Shown here: positions 26,781-46,141 of the stretch, piece after piece
Layout: every line of letters begins with the position of its first letter
Numbering within the stretch: position 1 is the first letter of the stretch
NCBI GenBank assembly: GCA_964472315.1
Contig: CAYYJS010000007.1
Location: 14,299 to 78,298 of the forward strand
DNA length: 64,000 nucleotides
DNA from: an uncultured Victivallales bacterium
Lineage (GTDB): Bacteria > Verrucomicrobiota > Kiritimatiellia > UBA8416
Direction of reading: 5' to 3'
Notes under the pieces: generated by a model
Told to the model about the DNA's origin: nothing
The model's database searches: none
The model's input: only the letters and a program-made list of their open reading frames with translations
Program-made: the position numbers and the translations under genes

Positions 26781-26782
26781 GC

Positions 26783-27682: not shown

Positions 27683-27694
27683 GGCGGGTCCCGG

Positions 27695-29023: not shown

Positions 29024-29026
29024 CGC

Positions 29027-30208
29027 ATGGCAGGTTCATCGGAAACGGTGCAACAACGGTTCGCCGTCGAATTCGCGTATCCGGTTGTCTTTACGCATGG
29101 GGTGTTCGACCCGGCCAACCCGGCGCTGGCGGATGTCCTGCGGGCGCGCCGCGAGGATGTGCCGCACCGTGCGCTTGTCTATATCGACGATGGTGTCTGG
29201 CAGGCGTGGCCCGATCTGCCGGAGCGGGTGGCGGCTTATCTTGGCGGTCTCGGCGATGTGGCCGTGCTGGCGTCCGAGCCCCGGGCTGTGCCCGGCGGCG
29301 AGCGTGCCAAGCAAGGCTGGGATATCGTGCGCGGCATCATGACCGGCATCGGCGATAACCGTCTCTGCCGCCACAGCTTCGTGATCGCCATTGGCGGCGG
29401 AAGCATGCTCGACATGGTCGGTTTCGCCGCCTCCATCGTACACCGCGGCGTGCGTCTGATCCGCCTGCCGACGTCGGTGCTGGCGCAGGCCGACGGCGGC
29501 GTTGGCGTCAAGAATGGGATGGATGAGCACGGCGTGAAGAACTATGTCGGCAGCTTCGCTCCGCCGGCGGCCGTCATCAACGACTACGATTTTCTCCGGA
29601 CGCTGCCGGATCGGTATTGGCGCGGGGGCGTTTCAGAAGCCTTCAAGGTTGCGATGATCAAGGACGCGGACTTTTTCGACGAGCTGTGCGGCATGGCCGT
29701 CCGGTTGCGCGCGCGCGATGCGCGCGCGATCGAACGGGTGGTCCGAAGGACGGCGGAACTGCATCTGGAACATATCCGGAGCAGTGGCGACCCGTTCGAG
29801 TTCGGCACGGCGCGGCCACTCGACTTCGGTCACTGGGTGGCGCACAAGCTCGAAGTGCTTTCGCACTACACGGTAAGCCATGGCGAAGCGGTGGCCATCG
29901 GCATCGCGATCGACGCCTGCTACGCGGCGAGTCAGGGCCTGTTGCCGGCCGCCGACCGCGACCGGGCGCTCGTGGCGATGGAAAGCATTGGTCTGCCGCT
30001 GTTCCACCCGTTGCTGACGCGACGGACGTCCTCGGGGACGTTGTCGGTTCTGGCCGGTTTGGAGGAGTTCCGCGAACACCTCGGCGGTCGGTTGACCGTG
30101 ACGCTGCCCGACGGCATTGGACGCGGACGGGAGGTGCACGACATGGACCATGGCTTGATCGAGGCCGCGGTCCGATGCCTGGAGGATAGGAGCGTCCATG
30201 CGCCTTGA
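29027..30208 (+). CDS. eboD: 3-dehydroquinate-synthase-like sugar-phosphate cyclase (EboD-like)
   Basis: DHQS fold motifs: IAIGGGSMLDMVGFAAS, GVKNGMDEHGVKNYVGSF and metal-binding His pairs. Confidence 0.8.
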   Translation: MAGSSETVQQRFAVEFAYPVVFTHGVFDPANPALADVLRARREDVPHRALVYIDDGVWQAWPDLPERVAAYLGGLGDVAVLASEPRAVPGGERAKQGWDIVRGIMTGIGDNRLCRHSFVIAIGGGSMLDMVGFAASIVHRGVRLIRLPTSVLAQADGGVGVKNGMDEHGVKNYVGSFAPPAAVINDYDFLRTLPDRYWRGGVSEAFKVAMIKDADFFDELCGMAVRLRARDARAIERVVRRTAELHLEHIRSSGDPFEFGTARPLDFGHWVAHKLEVLSHYTVSHGEAVAIGIAIDACYAASQGLLPAADRDRALVAMESIGLPLFHPLLTRRTSSGTLSVLAGLEEFREHLGGRLTVTLPDGIGRGREVHDMDHGLIEAAVRCLEDRSVHAP

Positions 30209-31355
30209 GACGCAGCCGCCCGTGCATCTGACCTATTGCCTGAACGTCCATCCCGGCGAGACGTGGGGCGAGAACCTGGCGGCGATCGAGACGTACGCCG
30301 TCGCCGTCCGGGACGCCGTCGGCGCGGGCAAACCGTTCGGGTTGGGCCTGCGGTTGAGCGCGCGGGCGGCCGAGACGCTGGCGGCGCCCGCGGTTCTGGC
30401 GCGGTTCCGGGAGACGCTGGCCCGTCACGATTTCTATGTGTTCACCGTCAACGGCTTCCCGTATGGCGACTTCCATGGAAAACCGGTCAAGACCAACGTC
30501 TACCGGCCGGATTGGCGCGATCCGCATCGGCTTGTCTACACGAAGCGCCTGACGGATATCCTCGGCGCGCTCCTGCCGGAGGGCGTTGCCGGCAGCATCA
30601 GCACCGTGCCTGTATCGTATGGCGACTGGATGCGGACCGGCGACGACTTTGCCGCCGCCCTGGCCAACCTGCGGGCCTGTGCCGCCTACCTGGCGGCGAC
30701 GGAGCGGCGGACCGGGCGGCGGATCCGATTGGCGCTCGAACCGGAGCCGGACTGCTGCATCGAAGATACGGCCGGCGCCATCGACTTTTTCGACCGCGCC
30801 ATGGCGGGGTGTGGCGACCGCTGCTTCCGCGAGTATGTCGGCATCTGTTTCGATACGTGTCACCTGGCCGTCCGGTTCGAGGACCCGACGGCGAGTCTGC
30901 TGGCGCTCGTCGCGGCGGGGATCGCGGTGCCGAAGGTCCAGGTGAGCGCGGCGTTGCGGTTGCCGTGCGCGGCCCGGGGCCGCGAGCGTCTGGCGCGCTT
31001 CGGCAATCCCGTCTACCTGAACCAGGTGAAGGTGCGCGAGGGCGGTTTGGTCGTCGCGTACGACGACCTGCCGGCTTTTCTGGCGTCGCCGGCCACCGAG
31101 GACGCGGAGGCGCGCATTCACTGCCATGTGCCACTGCACTTCGACGGCGACGCCGAGGTCGGATCGACACACGCCGGGTTGACGCCGTCGTTCTTCCGTG
31201 CCGCCATGCGTGCCGGCGTCGATCACTTCGAAATCGAAACGTACACCTTCGGTGTGCTGCCGCCGGAATTACAGGCGGGCGGCATCGTCGACAGTGTCGC
31301 CGCGGAGTATCGCTGGGTACTGGCGCGGCTGCCGCAAGCGTGCGCGGCATCGTAG
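30198..31355 (+). CDS. eboE: Xylose-isomerase-like TIM-barrel protein (EboE-like)
   Basis: Sugar phosphate isomerase/epimerase TIM-barrel; overlaps the eboD stop by 11 nt. Confidence 0.7.
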   Translation: MRLETQPPVHLTYCLNVHPGETWGENLAAIETYAVAVRDAVGAGKPFGLGLRLSARAAETLAAPAVLARFRETLARHDFYVFTVNGFPYGDFHGKPVKTNVYRPDWRDPHRLVYTKRLTDILGALLPEGVAGSISTVPVSYGDWMRTGDDFAAALANLRACAAYLAATERRTGRRIRLALEPEPDCCIEDTAGAIDFFDRAMAGCGDRCFREYVGICFDTCHLAVRFEDPTASLLALVAAGIAVPKVQVSAALRLPCAARGRERLARFGNPVYLNQVKVREGGLVVAYDDLPAFLASPATEDAEARIHCHVPLHFDGDAEVGSTHAGLTPSFFRAAMRAGVDHFEIETYTFGVLPPELQAGGIVDSVAAEYRWVLARLPQACAAS

Positions 31356-31376: not shown

Positions 31377-32249
31377 CTACAGCCAGAGCGGCATCGGCCC
31401 CGGGGTCTCGCGGTCCAGCCGGCGGGACGCCAGAAGCGCGTCCAGGGCGGCGAGCATGCCGGGCTTGTCTTTCGGCAGGCGGCCTTCCAGAGGCACGACG
31501 TTGGAGGCGTGATTGGCGCGGAAGACCGTGCTCGCGAGGGCGGTGCCGGCGATGAGCGCCCGCAGTTCGTGGACGACCTGCCATTCGGTCAGTGGCGTGA
31601 ACCGGCCGGCGGCCGTGTCGTCGTACAGCGGTGTGCCGGGGGTCGGCACCACACGCAACGCCGACAGGAGTCGCGGTTGCATGCGGGTGACGGCGGCGGC
31701 CGTCCGTTCGGCATGCGCGTCGCTGCGGGCGGCGCCGCCGAGGCCGAGGAGGATCATGACCGACAGGCGCAGACCGGCGGTCTGCGCCAGGATGCCGGCC
31801 TGAACCATGCCGGTGGCGGTCTCGCCCTTGTGGCAGTCGGCGAGAATGGACTCGTCGCCGCTTTCCAGCCCCATGTACAGAGTGTGCAGTCCGCGCGCGC
31901 GCAGGGCGCGCAGTTCGGCCTCGGACTTGCGTGCGATCGAGCTTCCGTTGGCGTAGAGACTGACGCGTGTCAGACCGGGCAGCGCCTCCCGGAGCAGATC
32001 GAGCATGGCGGCCAGTTCGTCGAAGGGGCGCGCCATGACGTCGCCGTCCGCCAGGAAGACGCGAGACGCGCGGGGCGAAAGGCGGGCTTCCGCGCGGATG
32101 AGCCGACGCACGGCATCCAGCGACAGCCGGCGGCAGGGGATGCCGCGATACATGCCGCAGAACGTGCAGCGATTGTGCGGGCATCCCCGGTCGACCTGCA
32201 GGATCAGACTGTCGGCTTCGGCCGGGGGGCGGTAGAGCGGCATATTCAT
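31377..32249 (-). CDS. Radical SAM protein
   Basis: CPHNRCTFCGM (CxxxCxxC) 20 aa from the N-terminus. Start at MNMPLYRPP (32249); the long ORF upstream of it is low-complexity. Confidence 0.75.
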   Translation of the reverse strand: MNMPLYRPPAEADSLILQVDRGCPHNRCTFCGMYRGIPCRRLSLDAVRRLIRAEARLSPRASRVFLADGDVMARPFDELAAMLDLLREALPGLTRVSLYANGSSIARKSEAELRALRARGLHTLYMGLESGDESILADCHKGETATGMVQAGILAQTAGLRLSVMILLGLGGAARSDAHAERTAAAVTRMQPRLLSALRVVPTPGTPLYDDTAAGRFTPLTEWQVVHELRALIAGTALASTVFRANHASNVVPLEGRLPKDKPGMLAALDALLASRRLDRETPGPMPLWL

Positions 32250-32253
32250 GGGG

Positions 32254-33201
32254 TCAGAGGTCGAGGGTGAGTTGTCCGCGGACGGTGACTTTGCGTCCCG
32301 ACGACAGGGCGGGATCGGACGTGTAGTACACGACGAATCGGACGCCGGGGAACTCCGCGGCGAGGGCGTCGCGGATGTAGTTCTCGACGGCGACGACATT
32401 CGAGTCATCGTCGTCCGAGAACCCCACGCTGATCGGCTTATCGAGGCCGCGCATGTGCGCGATGCGGATGACGTGTTCGACGAAATCGCGTATGGCGAAC
32501 TGCTTGCGCTCCTCGGTATCGGGCGAGGCGGTGACATCCGAGCCGAACAGGCGGCGGAACTCCGGGGACATGACGCCGTGGTACTTGCAGTGGTTGAGGT
32601 AGTAGTCGAGAAACTCCCTGTCCAGTTCGAAGAGGTGACCGGGGTCGAAGCAGGCGGCGTAGCCGCGCAGATTGGTGAGCATAACCCGCTTCTCCGACTC
32701 GTCGAGCACGACATCGATGAAGTACTCGACCGCGGCGCGGATGACGGAGGGACTGTGGCCGCGGGCGGTGACGATCGCGAAGAGGCGACCCTCGACGAGG
32801 GTTTGGCGGAACTTGCGGAAGCTGGGGGCGGCCGATGTCTCGCCGCGCACGACCTTGTCGATGGCGGCGCGCGTATCGCGCAGGAAGACGTTTTCGTTGT
32901 CGACGTCGATGTCGCGGAACTCCCGGAATGCCTCCTCCCAGTTGTCGTGAGGGGGGCGGTAATGCTCGCGATCCTTGCGGATGACGCTGAACACGGATGT
33001 GGACACGGCGTGCGGGACCCAGTCGCCGGCGTCGGTGCGCCGTTCCAGGTGGATGCGTGTGGGCATGTGGAAGATGTTATCGTCCCAGTCGAAGATGTAG
33101 TACTTCAGATCGCGGTCGGCGACCGAATAGTTGACCGGATGCCGGGGGCCGGGTTGGCCATCTTTGCGCTGGGGTGTCACAGAGCGGAGAGCATACCGCA
33201 A
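32254..33201 (-). CDS. Hypothetical protein, possibly HAD-like (YYIFDWDDNIF motif); partner of the radical SAM gene
   Basis: 315 aa; 4-bp gap to the radical SAM gene. FDWDDN resembles a HAD motif I (DxDx[T/V]) variant, but assignment is uncertain. Confidence 0.5.
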   Translation of the reverse strand: MRYALRSVTPQRKDGQPGPRHPVNYSVADRDLKYYIFDWDDNIFHMPTRIHLERRTDAGDWVPHAVSTSVFSVIRKDREHYRPPHDNWEEAFREFRDIDVDNENVFLRDTRAAIDKVVRGETSAAPSFRKFRQTLVEGRLFAIVTARGHSPSVIRAAVEYFIDVVLDESEKRVMLTNLRGYAACFDPGHLFELDREFLDYYLNHCKYHGVMSPEFRRLFGSDVTASPDTEERKQFAIRDFVEHVIRIAHMRGLDKPISVGFSDDDDSNVVAVENYIRDALAAEFPGVRFVVYYTSDPALSSGRKVTVRGQLTLDL

Positions 33202-33324
33202 CCGCGCGGGGTGTGGAACTGGAAAGTGTGGCGGCTGTCGCTATCGCCCGCTGGCTATCTGTCGTTTGCCGATCGGAGTTCCGGATTTCTCGTTGCGGTA
33301 AGCGGATGGGGTGCACCCCAGGGC

Positions 33325-33786
33325 ATGTCGGAAGCAGGACGCGAAGTGCTGGGAACTCGAAAGCCGAGTTCGATGCCGATGGCGCGCGAGTTCTACATGC
33401 CGAGTTGGAAGGCGTGGAGTCGACAGGTGCGGCAGGCGGGTTGCCCGGTCGTCGATGTGGACAGCGACGGGTTTATCGGCGATCTGATACCGCTGTGGAT
33501 CGAGTCGGGTGTCAACGCCTGCGACCCGATCGAGGTGGCCGCGCACTGCGACATCGTCGATTTCCGTCGGCGGTTCGGCAAGGCGATGACGTTCCGGCAG
33601 GGCATCGATAAGCGATGCATGGCCGCGGGCGGGAAGTCGCTGCGTGACGAGATGCGCCGGATCGAGCCGGTCGTTCGCGACGGCGGGTACATTCCGGGAT
33701 GCGACCACGGGATCCCCGCTGACGTCTCCTGGACGAACTTTCTCGAGTATTGCCGCCTGCTTGGCGGAGTGACCGGTTGGCTGTAA
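33325..33786 (+). pseudogene. C-terminal fragment of a uroporphyrinogen-decarboxylase-family (URO-D/MtaA-like) protein; N-terminus missing
   Basis: ~150-aa ORF ending DGGYIPGCDHGIPADVSWTNFLEY, typical of the URO-D family C-terminus. No room for the N-terminal ~200 aa because the minus-strand gene ends at 33201. Confidence 0.3.
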
Positions 33787-33898
33787 GGCCAGCCGGTTTT
33801 TGGCGTGCATGGCCCGGGCCGGCGGTCCGGGAAGGGGGCCGGACTCGCCGTCGCGATGGACCGCGGCGACACGGTATGCACGCGGCCGAAAATCAATC

Positions 33899-34053: not shown

Positions 34054-36216
34054 ATGGCCAAGCCGATCGACCTCATTGCGGCAAAACGGAGAGAGGCCGT
34101 CATACGCCTCTTCGAGCAGAAGTTCCAAGCGCACACGCGCATCACGGTGGGGTCCGCCACGTGCGAGAACGCGGCGGGCGCTTCGGAAGTCCATGCGCGG
34201 TTGCAGGCGCTGATGGATGAGCACTGCCCTCAGGGCGTCGTGGTCAGCCGTGTCGGGTGCGCGGGCAAGTGCGATATGGAGCCGGTCGTGACGGTGATTT
34301 CGCGCGGTACGATTCCGACCAAGTACGTGAACATGACGCCCCGGCGGGTGGAGCAGGTTTTCCGGGACCATATTCTGGGCGGCAAACCGGTGGAAGCCAT
34401 GTCGATGCGTTACAAGGCCGGGATCACGCATGCCGAACGCGTGGTCAGCGTCTGCGAGTGTGAGGTCTGCCTGAAGAATGGCGGCAAGCAGGTCGAGGAA
34501 GCGTTCCAGGCCGCCATCGAAGAGGCGGGACTGTCCGACCGCGTGGTGGTCATGCACTCGGCCTCGCAAGGGTTGGACGATATCGGGCCTGTGGCGCTCG
34601 TCTATCCGGACGACGTCATGTACCAGGAGATGACGCCGGATAGGGCTCGTGAGGTCGTGAAGAACCATTTCGTCGGCGGACAGCCCGTGGCGGAGTACGC
34701 CTGGTCGGGGGATCGTCTGACCAACCGATTTCTTCCGGTCTTCGGCGATGTTCCCTTTTTCGGCAAGCAGCTTCGCCTGACGCTTCGCAACTGCGGCGTG
34801 ATCGATCCGGAGAACCTGGACGAGTACTTGGCGGTGCGCGGTTATGAGGCCGCGGCGCGTGTGCTGACCGACGGTCAGGCGCAGGCCGTGATCGAGGCCG
34901 TCAAAGCGTCCGGCCTCCGCGGTCGCGGCGGCGGCGGGTTCTCCACGGGCACGAAGTGGGCCTTCGCGGCTCAGCAGCAGTCCGACGAGAAGTTCATCAT
35001 CTGCAACGCCGACGAGGGCGACCCCGGCGCGTTCATGGATCGCAGCACGATCGAAGGCGATCCCCACACCATTTTGGAGGGGATGATCATCGGGGGGTAC
35101 GCGATAGGCGCGACCCGCGGTTTCATCTACATCCGTGCGGAGTATCCGCTGGCGATCGTCCGTCTGGAGAAGGCCATCGCCGCCGCGCGTGCGGCGGGCA
35201 TCCTCGGCAAGCGCGTGATGGGTTCGGACTACGACTTCGATATCGAAGTGCGGCTGGGCGCCGGCGCATTTGTCTGCGGCGAGGAGACGGCGCTGATTCA
35301 CTCCATCGAAGGCAAGCGGGGCATGCCGCGTCCGCGTCCGCCGTATCCATCCGTCGAGGGGCTGTGGGGCAAGCCGACCGTCATCAACAACGTTGAAACG
35401 TTCGCGAACATCCCCGTGGTCATCCTGGATGGCGCCGAGTGGTTCAAGTCGCTCGGGACGAAGACCAGCGCGGGCACGAAGGTGTTTGCGCTTGCCGGCG
35501 ATGTGAACAACACGGGGTTGATCGAAGTGCCGATGGGCACGACCCTGCGCGATGTCGTCTACGGGGTCGGCGGCGGGATCAAAGGCGGGCGGGCGTTCAA
35601 GGCGGTTCAGACGGGCGGTCCGGCCGGCGGATGCCTGCCGGCCTCCGCGCTCGATACGCCGATCGATTACGACACGCTGGCGCGCGCGGGCAGCATCATG
35701 GGCAGCGGCGGCATGATCGTCATGGACGACGGCGCGTGCATGGTCAACGTCGCCAAGTTCTTCCTGGATTTCACGCAGAGCGAATCATGCGGCAAGTGCA
35801 CGCCCTGCCGCGAGGGCACGAAGCGCATGCTCGAGATCCTGACGCGCATCACGGCCGGCGAAGGGCGGGAGGACGATATCGACAAACTGCTGCGGCTTGC
35901 CGATACCGTCAAGAAGACGTCGTTGTGCGGGCTTGGCCAGGCGGCGCCGAATCCGGTGATCAGCACGATCACGCATTTCCGCGGCGAGTACGAAGCGCAT
36001 ATACGGGACAAGCACTGTCCGAGCGGCGTGTGCAAGGCACTGGCGAGTTTCGAGATCGATGCCGGGAAGTGCATCGGTTGCGGCGCTTGTCGCAAGGCCT
36101 GCCCGGTGCATTGCATCGCGGGTGAGACACGGAAGGTGCACGTCATCGACCAGTCCCGCTGCGTGAAGTGCGGGAGTTGTTATGAGGTCTGCAAGTTCGA
36201 TGCGGTAAAGAGGTGA
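34054..36216 (+). CDS. hydB: [FeFe]-hydrogenase NuoF-like flavoprotein subunit (HydB/HndC-like) with two N-terminal thioredoxin-like [2Fe-2S] domains and C-terminal 2x[4Fe-4S]
   Basis: RBS GGAGGAAGG; NADH/FMN-binding GLRGRGGGGFSTGTKW, SLCGLGQ (N3 cluster); CIGCGACRKACP and CVKCGSCYEVC ferredoxin motifs. Confidence 0.85.
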   Translation: MAKPIDLIAAKRREAVIRLFEQKFQAHTRITVGSATCENAAGASEVHARLQALMDEHCPQGVVVSRVGCAGKCDMEPVVTVISRGTIPTKYVNMTPRRVEQVFRDHILGGKPVEAMSMRYKAGITHAERVVSVCECEVCLKNGGKQVEEAFQAAIEEAGLSDRVVVMHSASQGLDDIGPVALVYPDDVMYQEMTPDRAREVVKNHFVGGQPVAEYAWSGDRLTNRFLPVFGDVPFFGKQLRLTLRNCGVIDPENLDEYLAVRGYEAAARVLTDGQAQAVIEAVKASGLRGRGGGGFSTGTKWAFAAQQQSDEKFIICNADEGDPGAFMDRSTIEGDPHTILEGMIIGGYAIGATRGFIYIRAEYPLAIVRLEKAIAAARAAGILGKRVMGSDYDFDIEVRLGAGAFVCGEETALIHSIEGKRGMPRPRPPYPSVEGLWGKPTVINNVETFANIPVVILDGAEWFKSLGTKTSAGTKVFALAGDVNNTGLIEVPMGTTLRDVVYGVGGGIKGGRAFKAVQTGGPAGGCLPASALDTPIDYDTLARAGSIMGSGGMIVMDDGACMVNVAKFFLDFTQSESCGKCTPCREGTKRMLEILTRITAGEGREDDIDKLLRLADTVKKTSLCGLGQAAPNPVISTITHFRGEYEAHIRDKHCPSGVCKALASFEIDAGKCIGCGACRKACPVHCIAGETRKVHVIDQSRCVKCGSCYEVCKFDAVKR

Positions 36217-36227
36217 GAGAACAACCG

Positions 36228-37985
36228 ATGAGCACAGAGGTTAAACTGACGATTGACGGAATTCCGACCGCGGCCGAGCCCGGCACGACGGTCATGCAGG
36301 CCGCGGACGACATTGGCATCCGGATTCCGCGGCTCTGTTACCACCCGAGTCTAAGCGTGCTCGGCGCCTGCCGAATCTGCATAGTCGAGGTCGAGGGGCA
36401 GCGGAACCCGGTGGCCTCGTGCGCCTTCCCGGTTGCCGAGGGCATGAAGGTGCGCACGTCGTCGCCGCTGCTGAGGCGATTGCGGCGCGACATTGTGGAA
36501 CTGCTGTTGGACAACCATCCGAAGGAATGCACGACGTGCGAGCGCTGCGGAAGCTGCGAACTGCAGGACCTGGCCCACAGCCTGGGCGTGCGCGAGCGGT
36601 TGTACGAGGGCGAGCGCAAACGCTTCGAGCGCGACTGCAGTTCGCAGGCCGTCATTCGCGATCCCGAGAAGTGCATCCTCTGCGGCCGGTGCGTGCGCGT
36701 GTGCGAGGAAGTACAGGGCGTGACCAATCTCAGCCAGCAGTACCGGGGATTCCTCAACTTCGTGGCGCCGGCGCACAACGACAAGATGGTCGATTCGGTT
36801 TGTATCCAGTGCGGGCAGTGCATCAACGTATGTCCGACCGCCGCCTTCGTGGAGCACAACAGCACGGATGTGGTGTTGGAAGCGCTGGCCAACCCGAACC
36901 TGCACGTCGTCGTGCAGACGGCGCCGTCCATTCGTGCCGCGCTGGGCGAAGGCTTCGGTTATCCGCCGGGAACGGCCGTCACCGGTAAGATGGTGACCGC
37001 CTCGCGCCTGATGGGGTTCGACAAGGTTTTCGATACGAACTTCAGCGCCGACCTGACGATCGTCGAAGAAGCGACGGAATTCCTCTCCCGCATGAAGGCT
37101 GGCGAGCGGCTTCCCCTGATCACCTCCTGCTCGCCGGGGTGGGTCAACTTCCTCGAGCATTTCTACCCCGAGTTGATCCCGTACGCGTCAAGCTGCAAGT
37201 CGCCGATGAGCATGCTTTCGACTTTGCTCAAGACATACTACGCCGACATCGCCGGGATCGATCCGAAGAATATCTTCGTTGTGGCGGTGATGCCCTGTAC
37301 GGCCAAGAAGTATGAGTGCGGGCGTCCGGAACATGTGGCGCCGTGGGGCAAGCCGTATACCGACGCGGTGTTGACGACGCGTGAGTACATCTGGCTGGCC
37401 AAGTGCCTCGGGGTCGACTTCGTGAATCTGCCGGACGGCGAGTTCGACAGTCCCCTGGGCGAGTCTTCAGGCGCCGGCGACATCTTTGGCGCGACCGGTG
37501 GCGTCATGGAAGCCGCCCTGCGGACCGCCTACGAGAAGGTTACGGGGAAGATATGCCCCGACCTGGACTTCGTGGCCGTCCGCGGCGTCGAAGGTCTCAA
37601 GGAGGCGGAGATCGACATCGACGGGACGATCGTTCGTGTCGCCGTGTCCAACGGACTGAACAACGCGAAGACGTTGCTGGATGCGGTGATTCAAGGTGAG
37701 CGGCAGTACCATCTGATCGAGATCATGGCGTGCCCTGGCGGATGTGTCGCCGGCGGCGGACAGCCGTATCCGCCGGACGGGATGTATGTTCTGGATCCCG
37801 AACTGACCCGGAAACGCGCGCAGGCGCTCTACGCCATCGACGCCGGCAAGAAACTGCGCAAGTCCCACGAGAATCCATCGATCATACGGCTCTACGAGAA
37901 GTTTCTGGGCGAACCGAACGGTCACAAGTCCCACGAGCTTCTGCATACATCCTATAACGCCAAGGAACCACGAGGGATACGATGA
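36228..37985 (+). CDS. hydA: [FeFe]-hydrogenase catalytic subunit (HydA/HndD-like) with N-terminal [2Fe-2S] and [4Fe-4S] domains; atypical L1 motif TSCSPGW
   Basis: RBS AAGAGGTG. H-cluster motifs L2 MPCTAKKYE and L3 EIMACPGGCVAGGGQP are present; L1 reads ITSCSPGW (canonical TSCCPxW). Confidence 0.85.
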   Translation: MSTEVKLTIDGIPTAAEPGTTVMQAADDIGIRIPRLCYHPSLSVLGACRICIVEVEGQRNPVASCAFPVAEGMKVRTSSPLLRRLRRDIVELLLDNHPKECTTCERCGSCELQDLAHSLGVRERLYEGERKRFERDCSSQAVIRDPEKCILCGRCVRVCEEVQGVTNLSQQYRGFLNFVAPAHNDKMVDSVCIQCGQCINVCPTAAFVEHNSTDVVLEALANPNLHVVVQTAPSIRAALGEGFGYPPGTAVTGKMVTASRLMGFDKVFDTNFSADLTIVEEATEFLSRMKAGERLPLITSCSPGWVNFLEHFYPELIPYASSCKSPMSMLSTLLKTYYADIAGIDPKNIFVVAVMPCTAKKYECGRPEHVAPWGKPYTDAVLTTREYIWLAKCLGVDFVNLPDGEFDSPLGESSGAGDIFGATGGVMEAALRTAYEKVTGKICPDLDFVAVRGVEGLKEAEIDIDGTIVRVAVSNGLNNAKTLLDAVIQGERQYHLIEIMACPGGCVAGGGQPYPPDGMYVLDPELTRKRAQALYAIDAGKKLRKSHENPSIIRLYEKFLGEPNGHKSHELLHTSYNAKEPRGIR

Positions 37986-38473
37986 GCACCAGCACTGACG
38001 GACTGAGCGCCGGGATTGTCGACTATATCAAGGCATGCCGGGAGAAGGAGCACCCCGAGAGCTATCTTATCCCCGTGCTCCAGAAAGTGCAGAGCGAGCA
38101 GGGCTTTCTGTCGAAGACCGGCATGAACCAGGTGGCGCAGCTCATGCAGGTGCCGACCGCGATGGTTACCGGGGTGGCCACGTTCTATCACTTCTTCACG
38201 TTCAAGCCGCGCGGAGAGAAACGCGTGACGGTGTGCATGGGGACGGCGTGCTTTGTCCGCGGTGCGGACAAGGTGCTCGACCGGGTCAAGGAACTGCTGG
38301 GGATCGGCGAGGGCGAGACCACGAGCGACGGCCGGTTTTCCATCGACTGCGCGCGTTGCATTGGCGCGTGCGCGCTGGCGCCGGTCGTGCTGGTAAACGA
38401 TAAGGTGTATGGCAACGTGACCACCGCGCAGGTCGAGAATATCCTCGCGGATCACGGTTTCGTTGTCGCGTGA
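37982..38473 (+). CDS. hydC: NuoE-like thioredoxin-fold [2Fe-2S] subunit of the hydrogenase (HydC/HndA-like)
   Basis: CMGTAC...CARCIGACALAPV motif (Cx4C...Cx3C); ATG overlaps the hydA stop (ATGA). Confidence 0.8.
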   Translation: MSTSTDGLSAGIVDYIKACREKEHPESYLIPVLQKVQSEQGFLSKTGMNQVAQLMQVPTAMVTGVATFYHFFTFKPRGEKRVTVCMGTACFVRGADKVLDRVKELLGIGEGETTSDGRFSIDCARCIGACALAPVVLVNDKVYGNVTTAQVENILADHGFVVA

Positions 38474-38565
38474 GGAGCGGCGTTGGCATGCCCGATTGCC
38501 GGTTGCGCAACGCGCCCGGCATGCAGGCCCGCGAACGGGCGACCAAACAAGAGAGGCTGATGGCA

Positions 38566-38949
38566 ATGAGCAAGAAGGTTCTGTTGATCGACGATGACGT
38601 GGACCTGGTGGCTGCCAACACCGCGGTGCTGGAAGCCGAAGGCTATACGGTTGTAAGCGCGAACGACGGCGCGGCCGGCATCGACATGGCCAAGGCCGAG
38701 AAGCCCGACCTGGTCATTCTGGATGTGATGATGGCGCACGATACCGAAGGGTTCGAGGTGAGCCGCAAGATGCGTGATTTGCCCGAGCTCCGGAAGACGC
38801 CCATCATCCTGCTGACCGGCATCAAACAGGCGATGAGCCTGCCGTTTCGCTTCGAACCCGATCAGGATTGGCTGCCGGTCAAGGTCATTCTGGAGAAGCC
38901 CGTTCAGCCCGCCCGGTTGATCGCGGAGGTAAGCAAGTACCTGGCGTAG
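38566..38949 (+). CDS. Stand-alone CheY-like response regulator receiver protein
   Basis: RBS GAGAGG; KVLLIDDDVD...DLVILDVMM...ILLTG receiver motifs; last gene of the [FeFe]-hydrogenase operon. Confidence 0.7.
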   Translation: MSKKVLLIDDDVDLVAANTAVLEAEGYTVVSANDGAAGIDMAKAEKPDLVILDVMMAHDTEGFEVSRKMRDLPELRKTPIILLTGIKQAMSLPFRFEPDQDWLPVKVILEKPVQPARLIAEVSKYLA

Positions 38950-38965
38950 GCATGCCTACACCAGG
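38940..38965. terminator. 26-nt near-perfect palindrome (CCTGGCGTAGGCA|TGCCTACACCAGG) between convergent REC gene and hypB: candidate bidirectional terminator
   Basis: Inverted repeat with one mismatch, centred between two converging stop codons 6 nt apart; no U-tract. Confidence 0.4.
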
Positions 38966-39744
38966 CTTTGCAGGTAGGCGAGCCAGGCGGCCATGCCATC
39001 GCCGGTACGGGCGCTCAGTTCCAGGACAAAAACGCCCGGCCGGACGGTGCGCAGGTTTTCGCGACAGCGGGACAGGCTCCAATCCAGGTGCGGGATCAGG
39101 TCGGTCTTGGTCAGAAGCACCACCGGCGCCTGCGCGAACAGCGACGGGTACTTGGCCGGCTTGTCCTCGCCTTCGGTCACCGACAGCAGGGCGATCTTGA
39201 AATCCTCGCCCAGGTCGAAGGCCGCGGGACAGACGAGGTTGCCGACGTTCTCGATGAACAGGATGCGCGTGTCGTCCGCAACCGCCCCCGGGAGCGCCTC
39301 GGCGACGCGGTCGGCGTCGAGATGGCAGGCGTTGTTCGTTTCGATCTGCGTTACGGGCGCGCCCTTGCCGCGCAAGCGCCGCGCATCGTTATCGGTCTTC
39401 TGGTCGCCCGTGATCACCGCGCACGGAAGCTTGCCCCGCAGTGCCGTCAAGGTCTTCTCCAGCAGGTAGGTCTTGCCGGATCCGGGCGATGAGATCATGT
39501 TGATCGCCACGATGCCGCGCGCCTTGAGCCACGCGCGGTTCCGCCGCGCGACCTCGTCATTGTGGCTGAGGATCCGTTGCTCGAGCCGGATGACTCGACC
39601 GGATTCGTCGTGTTCGTGCGCATCGCCGCCGACGGCATCGTGCGTATGGCTGTGGGCCGGGCGGCCGTCGCCGTGGTGGTGCCCGTGTCCCCCGGTATGC
39701 GCGTGCGTGTGGTGAGGATCGTCGCATCCGCAATTTTTACACAT
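38956..39744 (-). CDS. hypB: Hydrogenase nickel-incorporation GTPase HypB with His-rich N-terminus
   Basis: RBS AAGGAGAC; MCKNCGCDD...HHTHAHTGGHGHHHG His-rich metal-binding stretch; P-loop GSPGSGKT. Confidence 0.85.
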   Translation of the reverse strand: MCKNCGCDDPHHTHAHTGGHGHHHGDGRPAHSHTHDAVGGDAHEHDESGRVIRLEQRILSHNDEVARRNRAWLKARGIVAINMISSPGSGKTYLLEKTLTALRGKLPCAVITGDQKTDNDARRLRGKGAPVTQIETNNACHLDADRVAEALPGAVADDTRILFIENVGNLVCPAAFDLGEDFKIALLSVTEGEDKPAKYPSLFAQAPVVLLTKTDLIPHLDWSLSRCRENLRTVRPGVFVLELSARTGDGMAAWLAYLQSLV

Positions 39745-40117
39745 TCGAGTCGTCTCCTTGCTTGTCGCCACCCGGCGCATCGACCTCGACGGCCGTCAGC
39801 AGCAGATCCTGTCCGCCCGTCAGCCGCACGTCGCACGAACCGCAGGCTTCGCACACGTAGATCGGGAAATCCGGCGTGGCGTCGATGCCGCATGCATGGC
39901 AGTGCAGGTGTGCCGGCACGGCCGTGATATCGAGGGCCGCCCCGCCGACGCTCGTGCCCTCCGCCGCGAAAGGAAAGGCCATCCGCAGGGCTTCCGGATC
40001 GACGCCGCTGAGGGCGCCGACCGAGACGTGTACGGCGCTGACGCGCGACGATCCCGCGTCTTTCGCGACCGCCGTCACCTGGTCGACCAGCGCCTGCGCT
40101 ATCGATAGTTCATGCAT
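39737..40117 (-). CDS. hypA: Hydrogenase nickel-incorporation protein HypA
   Basis: Starts MHELSIA; zinc ribbon CHACG...CEACGS; overlaps the hypB start by 8 nt. Confidence 0.8.
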   Translation of the reverse strand: MHELSIAQALVDQVTAVAKDAGSSRVSAVHVSVGALSGVDPEALRMAFPFAAEGTSVGGAALDITAVPAHLHCHACGIDATPDFPIYVCEACGSCDVRLTGGQDLLLTAVEVDAPGGDKQGDDSNV

Positions 40118-40119
40118 GG

Positions 40120-41139
40120 TCAGCAAATCCTCGGCAACAGTTCCCCGCGCGGCACATCGATCAGGCGGCGGCCGCCGGTCAGCGTGGTCATCGACACCCG
40201 GCCCGCCACATCGGTCACCCGGCCGATCGCGGCGGCGCGTCCGCCGTTCTCCATACCGCGCCAGCGGCGCACAATCTCATCCGAGACGTCGGGACCGCAA
40301 ACGAGCGCCAGGCGCCCTTCGCTGGCGACCTGCAGCGGATCGAGTCCGAGCATCTCGCTGACGCCGCGTACGCCCGCCGAGAGCGGTATCGCCGTTTCGT
40401 CGAGCTCGATGCCGACCGGTCGTCCGTCGACGAGCTCGTTCAACACCGCGGCGAGCCCGCCGCGCGTGGGGTCCCGCATGAAGCGGATCTCGCCCGCGAG
40501 ATCGGCCACCGCCAGGACAAGCTCGTGCACGGGCGCGCTATCGCTCAGGGGTCCGTTGGCGATATGGATGTCTTCGCGGGCCGCGAGCACGGCAAGCCCG
40601 TGTTCGGCGATCGTGCCGTTGATGAGCACGTGGTCGTCGGGCTTCAGCAGGTTGGCGCCGAGCCTGAATGCGGGTAGCAGTTCGCCGATACCGGCCGTGT
40701 TGACAAAGATGCCGTCGGCCTGTCCGCGCGCGACGACCTTCGTATCGCCCGTGACGATCTCGACGCCGCAGCGCTCGGCGGCGGCCTTTACGGCGTCTAG
40801 CACCCGCCGCAAGGCGGCCATCGGGAACCCCTCCTCCAGAATCAGGGATAGCGAGAGCCACCGCGGACGGCCGCCGGCGACGGCGATATCGTTGACCGTC
40901 CCGTGTACGGCGAGATCCCCGATGTTGCCGCCGGGGAACTCGTAAGGCGTTACGACGAAACTGTCCGTCGTGAAAACCAGGCCCCGACTGGGCAATGCCA
41001 GCGTCGCCGCGTCCGGCAAGCCCTGCAGCGCCTTGGCGCTGAAGCGCGACACGATTTCCGCATCGATGAAAGCGCGGGTCAGCCGTCCGCCGCCGCCATG
41101 CGCCAGTTGAATCGTCTCGTCCACGTCATCGCCTCGCAA
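40120..41139 (-). CDS. hypE: Hydrogenase maturation carbamoyl dehydratase HypE
   Basis: AIR-synthase-like fold; C-terminal PRIC motif typical of HypE. Confidence 0.85.
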   Translation of the reverse strand: MRGDDVDETIQLAHGGGGRLTRAFIDAEIVSRFSAKALQGLPDAATLALPSRGLVFTTDSFVVTPYEFPGGNIGDLAVHGTVNDIAVAGGRPRWLSLSLILEEGFPMAALRRVLDAVKAAAERCGVEIVTGDTKVVARGQADGIFVNTAGIGELLPAFRLGANLLKPDDHVLINGTIAEHGLAVLAAREDIHIANGPLSDSAPVHELVLAVADLAGEIRFMRDPTRGGLAAVLNELVDGRPVGIELDETAIPLSAGVRGVSEMLGLDPLQVASEGRLALVCGPDVSDEIVRRWRGMENGGRAAAIGRVTDVAGRVSMTTLTGGRRLIDVPRGELLPRIC

Positions 41140-41165: not shown

Positions 41166-43412
41166 TCATGATGCATGCAGTCCGGCAACCACGGCCTGCC
41201 CGAAGGCGATGCCGCCATCGTTGGGCGGGATGCGCTGATGGGTGAGCACCCGAAAACCCATCGCCTCCAGTCGGGGTGCGAGAATTCCGCACAGCAGCCG
41301 GTTCATGAACACCCCGCCGGTGAGCGCCACCGTCCGCAAGGCGCTGGAGCCGGCCGCGGCGTCGACCATGCGGCAGGCGGCATCGGCGACGGCCAGGTGG
41401 CAGGCCAGCGCCTGAGTCGCGCGAGCATCCGCGTCGAGTTCGCCGAGGTCCGAAAGATACGCGATGGCCGGCGTCCAGTCGACTTCGATGCAGCCATCGT
41501 TGCGCTCGTACATCGCGAACGGCAGCGATGCGGGGTGTCCCGCCGGAGCGCGCCGTGCGGCCGCTTCCAGACAGATGGGGGCCTGTCCCTCGTAGGACAG
41601 CGCGACGGGCGCGAGGCCCAGCAGCACGGCAAAGGTGTCGAACAGGCGCCCGGCGGCGTGCGTGAGCGGGGCATTGAGTCCGCGCTCGCACTGGCGTCGC
41701 CAGACCGCGCAGGCTTCCTCGCCGGCGCCGTAACGGCTGAGGATATGGGGTAGGGGAACGATGCCGCCCTGTTGCCAGCGGGCGACAAGCTGGCGCACCG
41801 GTTGGTGGACGGCGGCATCGCCGCCGGGCAGCGCCGCGGGACGGAACGTCGCGCGGCGCGTGATGCCGGATGCGGTTACGGCGAGCAGTTCGGCGCCCCA
41901 GATGGCGCCATCGGGCCCAAGCCCCGTGCCGTCGAAACAGAGCGCCAGACCCTCGGTTTCGCCGTGTTCGGCGAGGCAGCCGACCGCGTGGGCGGCATGG
42001 TGCTGCACCTCGACAACCGGCACGCCGGCGCGTGCGGCCAGCAGATGGCCCAGGCGCGTCGCGTGCATGTCGGGGTGTGCATCGACGGCCACGCAGGCGG
42101 GTTGGCGGTCGAAGAAGATCGGCAGTTCGCGCGCGGCGCGTTCATGGGCGGCTATGGCTTCGGGCGTCTCCAGGTCGCCGATATGCGGCGACAGCACGAC
42201 CCGGGAGTCATAGCCGAGCGCGATCGTGTTCTTGAGTTCGGCGCCCATGGCCAGGACGTTGCGCGCCAGCGGATGGGTCAGTGTAATGGCCGACGGCGCG
42301 TAGCCTCTGGCGCGGCGCCAGACCTGCGGGCCACGCGCCTGCAGCACGACCAGCGAGTCGTCGTTGCGCAAGTTCACTTCACGGTCGTGCACGAGAAAGC
42401 AGTCGGCGATATCCGCGAGCCGACGGTACGCTTCATCGTTCGCGATGCAGATGGGTTCGGCGCGTTTGTTGCCGCTCGTCATGACCAGATAGTCGAACGG
42501 CGGCGTGGGATCGTCCGGCAGTCCCTGCGCGAGCAACAGGTGCAGCGGGGTCGTGGGGAGCATAACCCCGAGCGTTTGGGTGTCGGGTGCGATGAGATCG
42601 AGGGCAAGCGGAGTCTCCGATCGCTCGTCCACGTCCAGAACGACGATGGGTGCCTGGGGCGACGTGAGCAACTCCTCCGCTTCTGGCGTTACGCGGCATA
42701 CGCGGCGGGCGCAGGCGAGGTCACGCGCCATGACGGCGAAGGGTTTGGCCGGGCGTCGCTTCCGATCGCGGAGGAGGGCGATGGCCGGCCGGTTCTCCGC
42801 ATCGACGGCGAGCAGGAATCCGCCGAGACCGCGCACGGCGACGGTCTGGCCGGCGCGTAGGCGGCGTCGCGCTTCGCGCAGGGGTTCGCCGGCGATCGAC
42901 CGGCCCCGGCAATCGGTCAACGAGACCCGCGGTCCGCAGGCGGGGCATGCCGTCGATTCGGCATGAAAACGCCGGTTGGCGGGGTCGGTATACTCGGCGC
43001 GGCACCGCGGGCACAGCGGGAAGGCGGCGAGCGTGGTGCGCTCGCGATCGTAGGGCATGGCGTTGACGACCGTGTAGCGCGGTCCGCAATTCGTGCATGT
43101 CGTAAACGGGTACCCATGACGGCGGTCGTCGGGGTCCATGATCTCGGCACGGCATTCGGCGCACATGGCGAGATCGGCGGGAATGCTGACGTCCATGGGT
43201 TCGTCATCCACGCTGGACGCGACGGTGAACGGTGCGGGTACGGCGCCCGAGGGTAGCGGGACGTCGGAGATGAGTGCGATCGAGTCGATGGCGGCGATGG
43301 CGGGCAGGGAGGCCGGCAGGCGCGCGGCGAAGTCGTCGATGGCGGCGGGAGCGCCTTCCAGCACGATCAGGACCGACCCGGAGCGGTTCAGGACATGGCC
43401 GCCCAGCCCCAT
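41166..43412 (-). CDS. hypF: Carbamoyltransferase HypF (acylphosphatase + two Zn-fingers + YrdC + Kae1-like domains); true start probably upstream of the first ATG
   Basis: CTNCGPRYT...CPRCRAEY...CPACGP zinc fingers; YrdC and Kae1-like segments. The acylphosphatase motif TVQGVGFRPSVYRLA is encoded in-frame upstream of ATG 43412 (to about 43505) with no ATG. Confidence 0.8.
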   Translation of the reverse strand: MGLGGHVLNRSGSVLIVLEGAPAAIDDFAARLPASLPAIAAIDSIALISDVPLPSGAVPAPFTVASSVDDEPMDVSIPADLAMCAECRAEIMDPDDRRHGYPFTTCTNCGPRYTVVNAMPYDRERTTLAAFPLCPRCRAEYTDPANRRFHAESTACPACGPRVSLTDCRGRSIAGEPLREARRRLRAGQTVAVRGLGGFLLAVDAENRPAIALLRDRKRRPAKPFAVMARDLACARRVCRVTPEAEELLTSPQAPIVVLDVDERSETPLALDLIAPDTQTLGVMLPTTPLHLLLAQGLPDDPTPPFDYLVMTSGNKRAEPICIANDEAYRRLADIADCFLVHDREVNLRNDDSLVVLQARGPQVWRRARGYAPSAITLTHPLARNVLAMGAELKNTIALGYDSRVVLSPHIGDLETPEAIAAHERAARELPIFFDRQPACVAVDAHPDMHATRLGHLLAARAGVPVVEVQHHAAHAVGCLAEHGETEGLALCFDGTGLGPDGAIWGAELLAVTASGITRRATFRPAALPGGDAAVHQPVRQLVARWQQGGIVPLPHILSRYGAGEEACAVWRRQCERGLNAPLTHAAGRLFDTFAVLLGLAPVALSYEGQAPICLEAAARRAPAGHPASLPFAMYERNDGCIEVDWTPAIAYLSDLGELDADARATQALACHLAVADAACRMVDAAAGSSALRTVALTGGVFMNRLLCGILAPRLEAMGFRVLTHQRIPPNDGGIAFGQAVVAGLHAS

Positions 43413-43516: not shown

Positions 43517-43969
43517 TCAGCTTTGCACCTCCTTCAGCGCGACGGCGACATAGTCGGCGAACCGTGCTGCCACGGCCGCGGAAAGGCCGTCGCCCATGGT
43601 CATCGAAGCGGGCTGGATGGCCACGATGCGGATTGGCGGCACCGGCTGCCCGATCTGGCGCGCAAGCTGAACCAGCTTGAGCACGTCGCCCTCGTGCGTC
43701 GATATGGTCCCGACGACCTTGCGGGAGTCGACGTCCTCGGGGCCGAAGGCGATCCAGTCCCCCGGCTGCCCGCCGAAGTCGGCGGCATCGACGATGACGA
43801 CGCCGTCGGTCTCCGGCTCGAAATACGTCAGCACCTGCATGCCGTTGTTGCCGATCTCGACGGCCTCGAAACCGTCGTCAAGGTGGTTGTCGGCGATATG
43901 CTCGACGATGCGGAGCCCGATACCGTCATCGCCCATGGCGTAGTTACCGAGACCGAGCAGGTAGCGCAT
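43517..43969 (-). CDS. Hydrogenase maturation endopeptidase (HycI/HoxW/HybD family)
   Basis: MRYLLGLGNYAMGDDGIGLRIVE N-terminus and internal His-containing motif typical of [NiFe]-hydrogenase C-terminal proteases. Confidence 0.75.
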   Translation of the reverse strand: MRYLLGLGNYAMGDDGIGLRIVEHIADNHLDDGFEAVEIGNNGMQVLTYFEPETDGVVIVDAADFGGQPGDWIAFGPEDVDSRKVVGTISTHEGDVLKLVQLARQIGQPVPPIRIVAIQPASMTMGDGLSAAVAARFADYVAVALKEVQS

Positions 43970-44051: not shown

Positions 44052-45392
44052 TTACTTCTTGAACGTCACATCGAGGTAATGCGTGGAGCAGGAGATGCAG
44101 GGGTCGTAGGCACGGACCAGCATCTCGAGTCCCAGTTCCATCTCCTTTTCGGACTTGTTGGCCGCCACCAGTTCGGGGACGAGCGCGTTGAAGTCCTGTT
44201 GGATGTTGGCGTGATTCTGCCCGGTGGGAATGATGCAGTTGCCCATCGTGCAGAAACCGGCCGGATCGTAGGCGTACTCGTGGAACAGGATGCCACGCGG
44301 CACTTCCGTCGCGGCGGCGCCGCGTGCAAATCGCGTGGGCGTGGCCGGCTTCTCGTCCTTCAGTCCCTTTGTGAGCAGCACGTCGATGTACTCGACGGTC
44401 TTGAAGACGCTGTGGACGCATTCCACGAACTGCGCGATGCTGTTCATGTAGGGGTTGAAGCACAGGGGCTTCAGACCGAGCCCGACGGCCAACTTCCTGG
44501 CCTCGGGATGGAGTTGGTCGTGGCTGTTGTTGAAACGGGCCAGGGCGCCGGCCATGTAGCTGGCCATATTGTGCTTGGCGTACTTGGCCGTCGACTGGTC
44601 CACCACGTATTCGTTCGTCACGGAACGGTAGTCGGCGACGTCGATCAGTTCCTGAGCGCCGTCGGGCATCCGGCAGCCGATCTTGCCGTCATACAGGCCA
44701 TATTCCTTGTCGTCGACCAACGCGACGTACTCGGTCTGGCGCGTGAACGGTGGAATGCCGCCGGCGAGACTGAGCAGCGTCTTATAGGTTTCGACCGCAT
44801 CGGGTACGCAAGCCAGCAGCTTGTCCTTCAATTCGCGCAGGTTGGCTTCGGCCTCGCGCACGGTGCGGGCGCCGCCGGGCAGCGACGCGAAGCCGCCGAC
44901 GATCGCGCGGGTGGGGTGCGTGGTGCGTCCGCCGATGCAGCTTCCCCATTCGTGGCCGAGGCGCTTCATGCGCAGGGCGCGCTTGACGACCTCGCCGTGT
45001 GTCGGCACCAGCGGGAAGACCGAGGGCACACCCAGCAGATCGGGCGCTACGAGGAAGTAGACATGCAGGACATGCGAGTCGAAATTCTCGGCATGCTTGA
45101 GAATGCGCCGCAACAGGTCCGTCTGCTCCGAGATTTCGATGCCCAAGGCGGCCTCGGTCGCCTTCAGGGAGGCGAGGGTGTGGCCGACCGAACAGATGCC
45201 GCAGATGCGGCTCGTGATGCGCGCCACTTCGCTGTAGTGGCGTCCGCGCACCATCGCTTCGAAGAACCGCGGCGCCTCGGGCACCTGCCACTGGCAGGTC
45301 TCGACGGTGCCGTTGGTCACGTTGACCACGATGTTGCCGTGGCCTTCGACGCGCGTGAGATGATGGACATTGATCTTCGCGTTCTTTGTCAT
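44052..45392 (-). CDS. [NiFe]-hydrogenase large (alpha) subunit, group 3 (sulfhydrogenase/HydA-like)
   Basis: N-terminal RVEGHG, RICGICSVGH (L1 CxxC) and C-terminal DPCISCSTH (DPCxxCxxH) Ni-Fe-ligating motifs. Confidence 0.85.
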   Translation of the reverse strand: MTKNAKINVHHLTRVEGHGNIVVNVTNGTVETCQWQVPEAPRFFEAMVRGRHYSEVARITSRICGICSVGHTLASLKATEAALGIEISEQTDLLRRILKHAENFDSHVLHVYFLVAPDLLGVPSVFPLVPTHGEVVKRALRMKRLGHEWGSCIGGRTTHPTRAIVGGFASLPGGARTVREAEANLRELKDKLLACVPDAVETYKTLLSLAGGIPPFTRQTEYVALVDDKEYGLYDGKIGCRMPDGAQELIDVADYRSVTNEYVVDQSTAKYAKHNMASYMAGALARFNNSHDQLHPEARKLAVGLGLKPLCFNPYMNSIAQFVECVHSVFKTVEYIDVLLTKGLKDEKPATPTRFARGAAATEVPRGILFHEYAYDPAGFCTMGNCIIPTGQNHANIQQDFNALVPELVAANKSEKEMELGLEMLVRAYDPCISCSTHYLDVTFKK

Positions 45393-46141
45393 TATGCGTC
45401 ACCTCTGAAGTTGGCCGTGAACATGCGGGACTTGTTCCGGGCCCACGTTTCGGGCAGTTTGCCGTTCTCGATCAGCACCTTCTCCATCGATTCCTGGTTG
45501 GCGTTATCGACCATGCCTCGGCAGGCCTCGCAGGGAATCCCGTCGGCGGGGCAGGGCGCCCCGCAACCGGCGCGGGCGATGGGACCGAGACAATGGTCGC
45601 CGTCGTCATAGCGGCATACGGTGCCGCGCCGTTTGCATTCCATGCAGACGGGATAGGAGGGGATATAGACCTTCGCCGTCCCGTTGACGAGCTGGGTTAC
45701 GACGCGGATGAATTCGCCGCGATCCATCGGGCAGCCATGGACCTCGTAGTCGACTTTGATGGCCGCGGAGATCGGCAAGGCCTTCTTGGATGCCAGGTGC
45801 GGACGGTCCTTGTCGTCGCCGTAGACCTCATTGGCGTAGTCCGACGTATGGTTCTTCAGGGCGTTGATGCCTCCGCAGGTGGCGCAGGCGCCATAGGCGA
45901 CAACCACCTTTGCCCGGTTGCGAATCTCCTCCAGGCGCCGGCGGTCGGATTCGCGCGTAAACGACCCTTCGACGAAGGCCACATCGATGGGACCGGTCGT
46001 CTTCTCGGACATCGCTTCGCGGAACTCGACCGGTTCCACATTCTCCAGGAGTTGGACGAACGGCTCGCCGAAATTCGTCAGTTCAATCTGGCAACCTTCG
46101 CAACAGGCGAAGTCGAACCATGCACATTTTACCTTGGCCAT
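45392..46141 (-). CDS. [NiFe]-hydrogenase small (delta) subunit, group 3b-like
   Basis: Cys clusters FACCEGCQ, GACATCGG and CPM...C typical of the cytoplasmic small subunit. Confidence 0.8.
   Translation of the reverse strand: MAKVKCAWFDFACCEGCQIELTNFGEPFVQLLENVEPVEFREAMSEKTTGPIDVAFVEGSFTRESDRRRLEEIRNRAKVVVAYGACATCGGINALKNHTSDYANEVYGDDKDRPHLASKKALPISAAIKVDYEVHGCPMDRGEFIRVVTQLVNGTAKVYIPSYPVCMECKRRGTVCRYDDGDHCLGPIARAGCGAPCPADGIPCEACRGMVDNANQESMEKVLIENGKLPETWARNKSRMFTANFRGDA

Follow-up and report, generated by a model that had tools for sequence, protein, structure and literature searches.

Does an [FeFe]-hydrogenase in which serine takes the place of a cysteine ligand in the L1 motif of the H-cluster still build a normal active site, or does the deviation mark an inactive, sensory or mis-sequenced protein? 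This question is raised by hydA, a gene located in a 64,000-nucleotide stretch of DNA from an uncultured Victivallales bacterium (hereafter the window, to which all positions refer). In the canonical motif TSCCPxW, the first Cys is the proton-relay residue and the second position ligates the [4Fe-4S]H subcluster. This assignment, made in an earlier sequence-only reading of the window, agrees with our alignment to CpI and with Katsyv et al. 2023 and Kertess et al. 2017. In HydA, the second position is Ser. The sequence-only reading left three implications side by side: Ser ligation, an altered, sensory or inactive H-cluster, or a local sequence error. Only Ser ligation, for which the published structure of Acetobacterium woodii HydABC provides the precedent, is retained here.

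The substitution has been described before. According to Katsyv et al. 2023 (PMC10021017), L1 of A. woodii HydA1 reads ITSCSPGW, Ser301 replaces the Cys ligand in the cryo-EM model of HydABC, and the enzyme is active and displays typical FTIR states, including protonated and hydride states. The same paper indicates a medium resolution for the A. woodii cryo-EM data (3.49 Å is quoted for one map) and names Cys299Tk, of Thermoanaerobacter kivui, as ligand of cluster A1 (PMC10021017). Kertess et al. 2017 (PMC5855289) note a Ser at this ligand position in about 20% of sequences. In the CrHydA1 studied there, the L1 ligand is C115 (construct numbering; the neighbouring cysteine is 114), and the engineered variants C115S, C115D and C115A were inactive and retained little of the [4Fe-4S] cluster. 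TSCSPGW has also been recorded in two trimeric confurcating hydrogenases of Melainabacteria ACD20 (Di Rienzi et al. 2013, PMC3787301). A search of the later literature for a natural Ser ligand (‘serine ligand’ with HydABC, and Ser301) returned Katsyv 2023 alone. As the same substitution is published in the active A. woodii enzyme, Ser at L1 is already known and the gene in the window is an ordinary further example.

The hydA gene and its operon

The catalytic subunit is encoded together with two partner subunits, followed by a response regulator gene:

34054..36216, forward strand: hydB, NuoF-like flavoprotein subunit, 720 aa from ATG (the open reading frame opens at TTG 34030)
36228..37985, forward strand: hydA, catalytic [FeFe]-hydrogenase subunit, 585 aa, assigned on NCBIfam, Pfam and PDB matches
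37982..38473, forward strand: hydC, NuoE-like thioredoxin-like [2Fe-2S] subunit, 163 aa, its start overlapping the hydA stop (ATGA)
38488..38949, forward strand: stand-alone receiver-domain response regulator (Pfam Response_reg), 14 bp after hydC

The hydA open reading frame opens at GTG 36213 and ends at 37985. The called start, ATG 36228, is likely the true one, as the resulting 585 aa agree with a database protein that is 100% identical to HydA over 585 aa and with the gene calls on three public contigs. HydA scores 825.1 bits against NCBIfam NF040763 (FeFe_hydrog_A6; curated cutoff 765), which places it in this family, titled ‘NADH-dependent [FeFe] hydrogenase, group A6’ by NCBIfam. The match spans HydA residues 10-584 and profile positions 1-571 of 571. 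Pfam domains comprise Fer2_4, NADH-G_4Fe-4S_3, two Fer4, Fe_hyd_lg_C and Fe_hyd_SSU; the Pfam search detected no PAS or other signalling domain. The PDB matches obtained with phmmer are 8a6t_A of T. kivui (1e-180), 7q4v_A of A. woodii (7e-177) and CpI (1e-136), with H-domain identities to HydA of 53%, 51% and 48%, respectively. The first two are HydA1 subunits of electron-bifurcating HydABC complexes, and a check of the PDB entries confirmed what they are. No second H-domain or HydS-like gene was found in the window.

Both neighbours that define a HydABC/Bfu-type complex are present: a NuoF-like HydB and a NuoE-like HydC, each adjacent to hydA. The bifurcating-type operon of hydB, hydA and hydC proposed in the sequence-only reading was correct in gene order and enzyme type. 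In HydB, an FMN/NAD(P)H site is accompanied by a [2Fe-2S] ferredoxin-like domain at the N-terminus and a 2x[4Fe-4S] domain at the C-terminus; the Pfam matches are Complex1_51K, NADH_4Fe-4S, SLBB and two C-terminal Fer4. Its residues 131-719 align to residues 8-597 of 599 of A. woodii HydB (7q4v_B, 771 bits), leaving an extra N-terminal extension of ~130 aa. HydC matches Pfam 2Fe-2S_thioredx (5e-50), and its best PDB match is A. woodii HydC (7q4v_C, 2e-37). Among 79 related loci with a Ser-type L1, hydB lies directly upstream of hydA in 77. The order hydB-hydA-hydC occurs in 37 closer loci; in more distant ones, hydC is located upstream of hydB-hydA. A homolog of the response regulator is found downstream of hydC only in the eight closest PVC-group loci among the related loci, and its membership in the hyd operon is uncertain.

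In the examined parts of the window, no HydE, HydF or HydG maturase genes were seen near the operon, an observation counted against the reading preferred below. The sole radical-SAM open reading frame near the operon (31377-32714, reverse strand) is of the B12 type and weakly HpnJ-like.

H-cluster motifs and proton pathway

The residues relevant to the H-cluster and to proton transfer are distributed over hydA as follows (all on the forward strand; numbering from ATG 36228):

37062..37091, forward strand: VEEATEFLSR with proton-transfer residues Glu281, Glu284 and Arg288, corresponding to CpI E279, E282 and R286 in an ungapped alignment
37119..37142, forward strand: L1 motif ITSCSPGW, I298-W305, encoded by ATC ACC TCC TGC TCG CCG GGG TGG
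37128-37130, forward strand: Cys301 (TGC), proton-relay Cys, equivalent to CpI C299, T. kivui C298 and A. woodii C300
37131-37133, forward strand: Ser302 (TCG), [4Fe-4S]H ligand position, equivalent to CpI C300, Cys299Tk and Ser301Aw
37185..37205, forward strand: ASSCKSP, in which Ser321 corresponds to the CpI proton-transfer residue S319 and Cys323 lies at the position of CpI A321 (alignment to CpI)
37290..37316, forward strand: L2 motif MPCTAKKYE, canonical, with ligand Cys357 and with Lys360
37719..37766, forward strand: L3 motif EIMACPGGCVAGGGQP, canonical, with ligands Cys502 and Cys506

Re-reading the window gave the same eight L1 codons as the sequence-only reading, although the motif starts one base upstream of the 37120 given there, and the Cys-Ser pair, placed there at 37131-37136, occupies 37128-37133. 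Its description of L2 and L3 as canonical held, both motifs being located at the positions above. It had further proposed an alignment with CpI and HydA1 as a check. In this alignment, Ser302 falls on the ligand position of CpI Cys300 without gaps. The phmmer alignments to the PDB chains of CpI, T. kivui HydA1 and A. woodii HydA1 are gap-free for ~100 residues around L1.

HydA thus contains what defines a group A H-domain, namely L2 of the form MPCxxKxxE, L3 of the form ExMxCxxGCxxGGGQP and their three Cys ligands. The proton-transfer pathway is complete as well, with Cys301, Glu281, Ser321, Glu284 and Arg288 aligning to CpI without gaps. Under a strict L1 definition (TSCCPxW, with Cys at the position of CpI C300), HydA is left out, as Ser302 stands there. 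This definition of [FeFe]-hydrogenases is too narrow: the active A. woodii HydA1 has Ser at this position, and so do 15-20% of sequences. Since L1 pairs a relay Cys with a Ser at the ligand position and the F-domain clusters are present, HydA belongs to the Ser-ligand subclass of HydABC enzymes.

Sequence support and conservation of Ser302

DNA identical to that of the window, including the TCG codon, is present in the Logan assemblies of three separate runs (SRR12261223, SRR12261224 and SRR12261225), with zero mismatches across 3.5-8.2 kb. Among database homologs, the 120 closest (68-100% identity) all have the Cys-Ser pair: 117 carry TSCSPGW, and the remaining three SSCSPGW or TSCSSGW. The pair is equally present in 79/79 related loci from GTDB species genomes (51% to 78-80% identity), where 78 fit the motif pattern and one (L034) has TSCSSGW. 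These loci span many phyla, with hosts in Verrucomicrobiota, Victivallales, Holophagaceae (including the cultured Geothrix terrae), Armatimonadota, Christensenella, Synergistaceae, Chloroflexota and other groups. Both Cys301 and Ser302 are therefore invariant in 199 relatives (120 homologs and 79 loci).

All six Ser codons are in use over the 78 loci in which the codon was read: TCG (22), AGC (21), TCT (15), TCC (9), TCA (9) and AGT (2). Such codon diversity indicates that this position is under purifying selection for Ser and argues against a shared error.

Distribution of Ser and Cys at the ligand position

A census was taken of the best 148 representative proteins (50%-identity clusters) with L1 aligned. 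The L1 pair is Cys-Cys in 107 of them, Cys-Ser in 22 (15%) and Ser-Cys in five, the rest being scattered degenerate forms. The 15% of Cys-Ser matches the ~20% quoted by Kertess et al. 2017.

A rough NJ tree groups the Ser forms mainly around A. woodii, T. kivui, CpI and the query, but with Cys forms in between, so that a single Ser-type clade was rejected. The Fitch minimum for the Ser/Cys site on this rough tree is 12 changes. Both the TCN and the AGY codon family are used for Ser, and these are interconvertible via a single-step Cys (TGY) intermediate. Taken together, the interleaved tree, the 12 changes and the two codon families hint at repeated switching between Cys and Ser at this site, although this is suggestive only.

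A Cys at the position of CpI A321 (SSCKSP), which occurs both here and in A. woodii, was considered as a compensating cysteine. This candidate was rejected for lack of covariation with the Ser ligand: the Cys is shared by many TSCCP enzymes and replaced by Ala in several TSCSP enzymes. A covariation scan over 380 H-domain columns compared 15 Ser-type with 93 Cys-type representatives. The top column was an Ile before the L3 Met, present in 9/15 Ser-type and 11/93 Cys-type proteins (p = 1e-4, ignoring phylogeny), followed by a Gly after the L1 Pro, in 13/15 and 35/93, respectively (p = 4e-4, likewise ignoring phylogeny). Neither column was accepted as diagnostic of the Ser type, both being borderline after multiple testing with kinship left out of account.

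Proposed function and alternative explanations

We propose, with a probability of roughly 0.85, that HydA is the catalytic subunit of a HydABC-type (Bfu-family, group A6) hydrogenase with an H-cluster that is normal except for a clade-fixed Ser302 ligand. The complex would be an [FeFe]-hydrogenase linked to NAD(P)H and ferredoxin. On the model of A. woodii HydA1, the oxygen of Ser302 would fill the fourth coordination position at the [4Fe-4S]H cubane, and the other three cubane ligands would stay thiolates, provided by Cys357 of L2 and by Cys502 and Cys506 of L3. The proton pathway (Glu/Ser/Glu/Arg) is retained together with the relay Cys301, and by analogy with A. woodii HydA1 the enzyme is expected to be normal and bidirectionally active. 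The sequence of HydA, the conservation of Ser302, its alignment to the ligand position and the operon are direct observations, whereas homology is the ground on which we predict that Ser302 binds Fe directly through its oxygen, that the enzyme is active and that the complex bifurcates or confurcates electrons.

The Ser-Fe coordination drawn on here comes from a medium-resolution cryo-EM model of a homolog with a 51% identical H-domain, which speaks against the proposal, as does the behaviour of CrHydA1: [4Fe-4S] incorporation and activity were almost entirely lost in C115S, so a Ser cannot simply be assumed to work as a ligand. Both points lend some weight to an arrangement in which Ser302 is no ligand and Cys301 or a water/hydroxide is the fourth ligand of [4Fe-4S]H with a rearranged proton relay; the poor cluster binding of C115D and C115A points the same way. 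We nevertheless hold this arrangement to be quite improbable. The A. woodii model has Ser301 as ligand, and the typical FTIR states of that enzyme, protonated and hydride states included, make a diversion of the relay Cys unlikely. Moreover, the invariance of Cys301 and Ser302 across the 199 relatives suggests two separate roles for these residues. A different doubt concerns electron transfer and not the cluster. HydABC look-alikes that oxidise NADH without ferredoxin may exist, as Syntrophomonas wolfei Hyd1ABC is reportedly a non-bifurcating NADH-dependent hydrogenase. The NCBIfam family name would suit such an enzyme, and sequence cannot reveal bifurcation. This option seems unlikely here, given that the alignment of HydB with its bifurcating A. 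woodii counterpart runs end to end and takes in both the [2Fe-2S] domain at the N-terminus and the 2x[4Fe-4S] domain at the C-terminus, and that each of the three subunits finds its best PDB match in a proven bifurcating complex.

Sensory hydrogenases (HydS, groups C and D) are characterised by a C-terminal PAS or other signalling domain and by loss of proton-pathway residues. The departure of L1 from TSCCP and the response regulator gene after the operon could be read as signs of such a sensory or regulatory protein, or of a catalytically dead one. HydA, however, has no signalling domain, its proton pathway is complete and its L2 and L3 are intact, it scores above the cutoff of the catalytic group A6 (NF040763), it is encoded in a HydB/HydC context and it shares its motif with the active A. 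woodii enzyme; the response regulator, for its part, is kept in just eight close loci. We therefore regard a sensory or dead enzyme as very improbable and set aside the inactive or sensory variant offered in the sequence-only reading. The local sequencing or assembly error also offered there, by which TGC became TCG, is practically negligible. Only the deviation from the textbook motif speaks for it, while it requires two base changes, the three independently assembled runs agree with the window throughout, and Ser is encoded in all 199 relatives with six codons among them. The HydABC-type enzyme with a Ser302 ligand is thus the reading taken forward.

In genome annotation, an H-cluster motif of the form TSCSPxW is no reason to call a protein defective, sensory or mis-sequenced, since functional multimeric [FeFe]-hydrogenases with this motif form a large natural subclass (~15-20% of sequences). 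Of interest to enzymology is the contrast between native Ser-type enzymes, in which a normal H-cluster is assembled, and CrHydA1, which the same exchange destroys. To the question of the Ser ligand, the window contributes one more example together with conservation statistics. A more speculative thought, which we consider doubtful, is that Ser/Cys at the first [4Fe-4S]H ligand acts as an evolutionary tuning switch, native Ser scaffolds having adaptations that make Ser competent. Such a switch could set the potential of the cubane or the catalytic bias, for instance in confurcating versus bifurcating HydABC. In the searchable literature, we found no measurement of the effect of an O-ligand on cluster potential or catalytic bias.

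Comparison with known hydrogenases

A close known counterpart is A. woodii HydA1 (PDB 7Q4V, 7Q4W and 8A5E). Its L1 string is the same as that of HydA, ITSCSPGW, it is of similar length (583 aa versus 585 aa here) and alike in domain architecture, and the partner subunits find their best or near-best PDB matches in HydB and HydC of A. woodii. The two H-domains are nevertheless just 51% identical. In related loci about as distant as A. woodii (51-56% identity), hydC precedes hydB-hydA, in contrast to the order hydB-hydA-hydC here, and A. woodii HydB lacks the N-terminal extension of ~130 aa. The hosts differ as well: A. woodii is a Firmicute acetogen, whereas the present host is a PVC-group bacterium, with Kiritimatiellae, Verrucomicrobiota and Victivallales as the nearest named relatives.

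T. kivui HydA1 (PDB 8A6T and 8BEW) is the best overall PDB match, with the same HydABC architecture and 53% H-domain identity, but it has the canonical TSCCPSW with Cys299 as ligand. CpI of Clostridium pasteurianum, the prototype of group A, has the layout of F-domain and H-domain seen here and shares the proton-pathway residues and the L2 and L3 motifs, at 48% H-domain identity. It differs in being monomeric and ferredoxin-dependent, with TSCCPGW and without HydB or HydC partners.

The Melainabacteria ACD20 pair carries TSCSPGW as does HydA, but has lost a Cys of motif 3, whereas L3 is intact here. Engineered CrHydA1 C115S, finally, has the Cys to Ser exchange at the very position of the natural Ser302. 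It loses most of its cluster and all of its activity, while the natural Ser-type enzyme of A. woodii is fully functional, which argues for an adaptation of the scaffold in natural Ser-type enzymes.

Genomic context of the hydBAC operon

A gene for a response regulator lies 14 bp 3' of hydC, and at about position 38950 the [FeFe] hydBAC operon and a [NiFe] hydrogenase cluster meet tail to tail. The features on either side of the operon are as follows.

Features flanking hydBAC (window positions, strand)
within 26717-31355, +, UbiA prenyltransferase
within 26717-31355, +, type I phosphodiesterase
within 26717-31355, +, 3-dehydroquinate synthase-like protein
within 26717-31355, +, xylose-isomerase-like TIM barrel
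31377-32714, -, B12-binding-type radical SAM protein
32248-33786, +, candidate 512-aa ORF immediately 5' of hydB
38488-38949, +, stand-alone receiver-domain response regulator
38956-39780, -, HypB
39737-40126, -, HypA
40120-41139, -, HypE
41166-43412, -, HypF
43517-43969, -, HycI
44052-45392, -, [NiFe] hydrogenase alpha subunit
45392-46141, -, [NiFe] hydrogenase delta subunit
46141-46980, -, [NiFe] hydrogenase gamma subunit
46983-48020, -, [NiFe] hydrogenase beta subunit

The top NCBIfam match of the response regulator is DVU0259/DivK-like, under the cutoff. Homologs 3' of hydC are confined to the eight closest loci, from Verrucomicrobiota and Victivallales, which suggests that the hydrogenase operon is under lineage-specific regulation.

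Among the 79 related hydA loci from GTDB species genomes (L004-L082), hyd gene order divides by distance from the window enzyme. Loci with at least 62% identity are ordered hydB-hydA-hydC; in those with 51-56% identity, hydC lies 5' of hydB-hydA, often with an additional gene between hydC and hydB. Every locus is Ser-type (Ser at the [4Fe-4S]H ligand position of HydA), whichever its gene order.

The representative search also returned P0121, a predicted protein of 4122 aa with seven tandem [FeFe]-hydrogenase H-domains, in all of which TSCCA(S/G)W replaces TSCCPxW. This could reflect an artefact of assembly or gene calling, or else an unusual repeat protein.

Upstream of hydB, neither the 512-aa ORF nor the minus-strand ORFs overlapping it (32254-33201 and 33241-33810) matched Pfam or NCBIfam. 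The radical SAM protein, of the B12-binding type, has weak HpnJ and methyltransferase-like matches and is neither HydE nor HydG. The plus-strand genes further upstream are unconnected with hydrogen metabolism and may form a small biosynthetic cluster. The GC content of the window is 64.9%.

Comparison with known hydrogenases

The four [NiFe] subunit genes, followed by HycI and Hyp genes, encode a hydrogenase resembling group 3b sulfhydrogenases; in an NCBIfam scan of the alpha and beta subunits, both scored under the equivalog cutoffs.

At its N-terminus HydB is extended by about 130 aa (34054-34450); the extension has a weak thioredoxin-like [2Fe-2S] match and may be a fused HydD/HndB-like domain. 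HydB of the Acetobacterium woodii electron-bifurcating HydABC (7q4v_B) lacks it, as the alignment begins at query residue 131.
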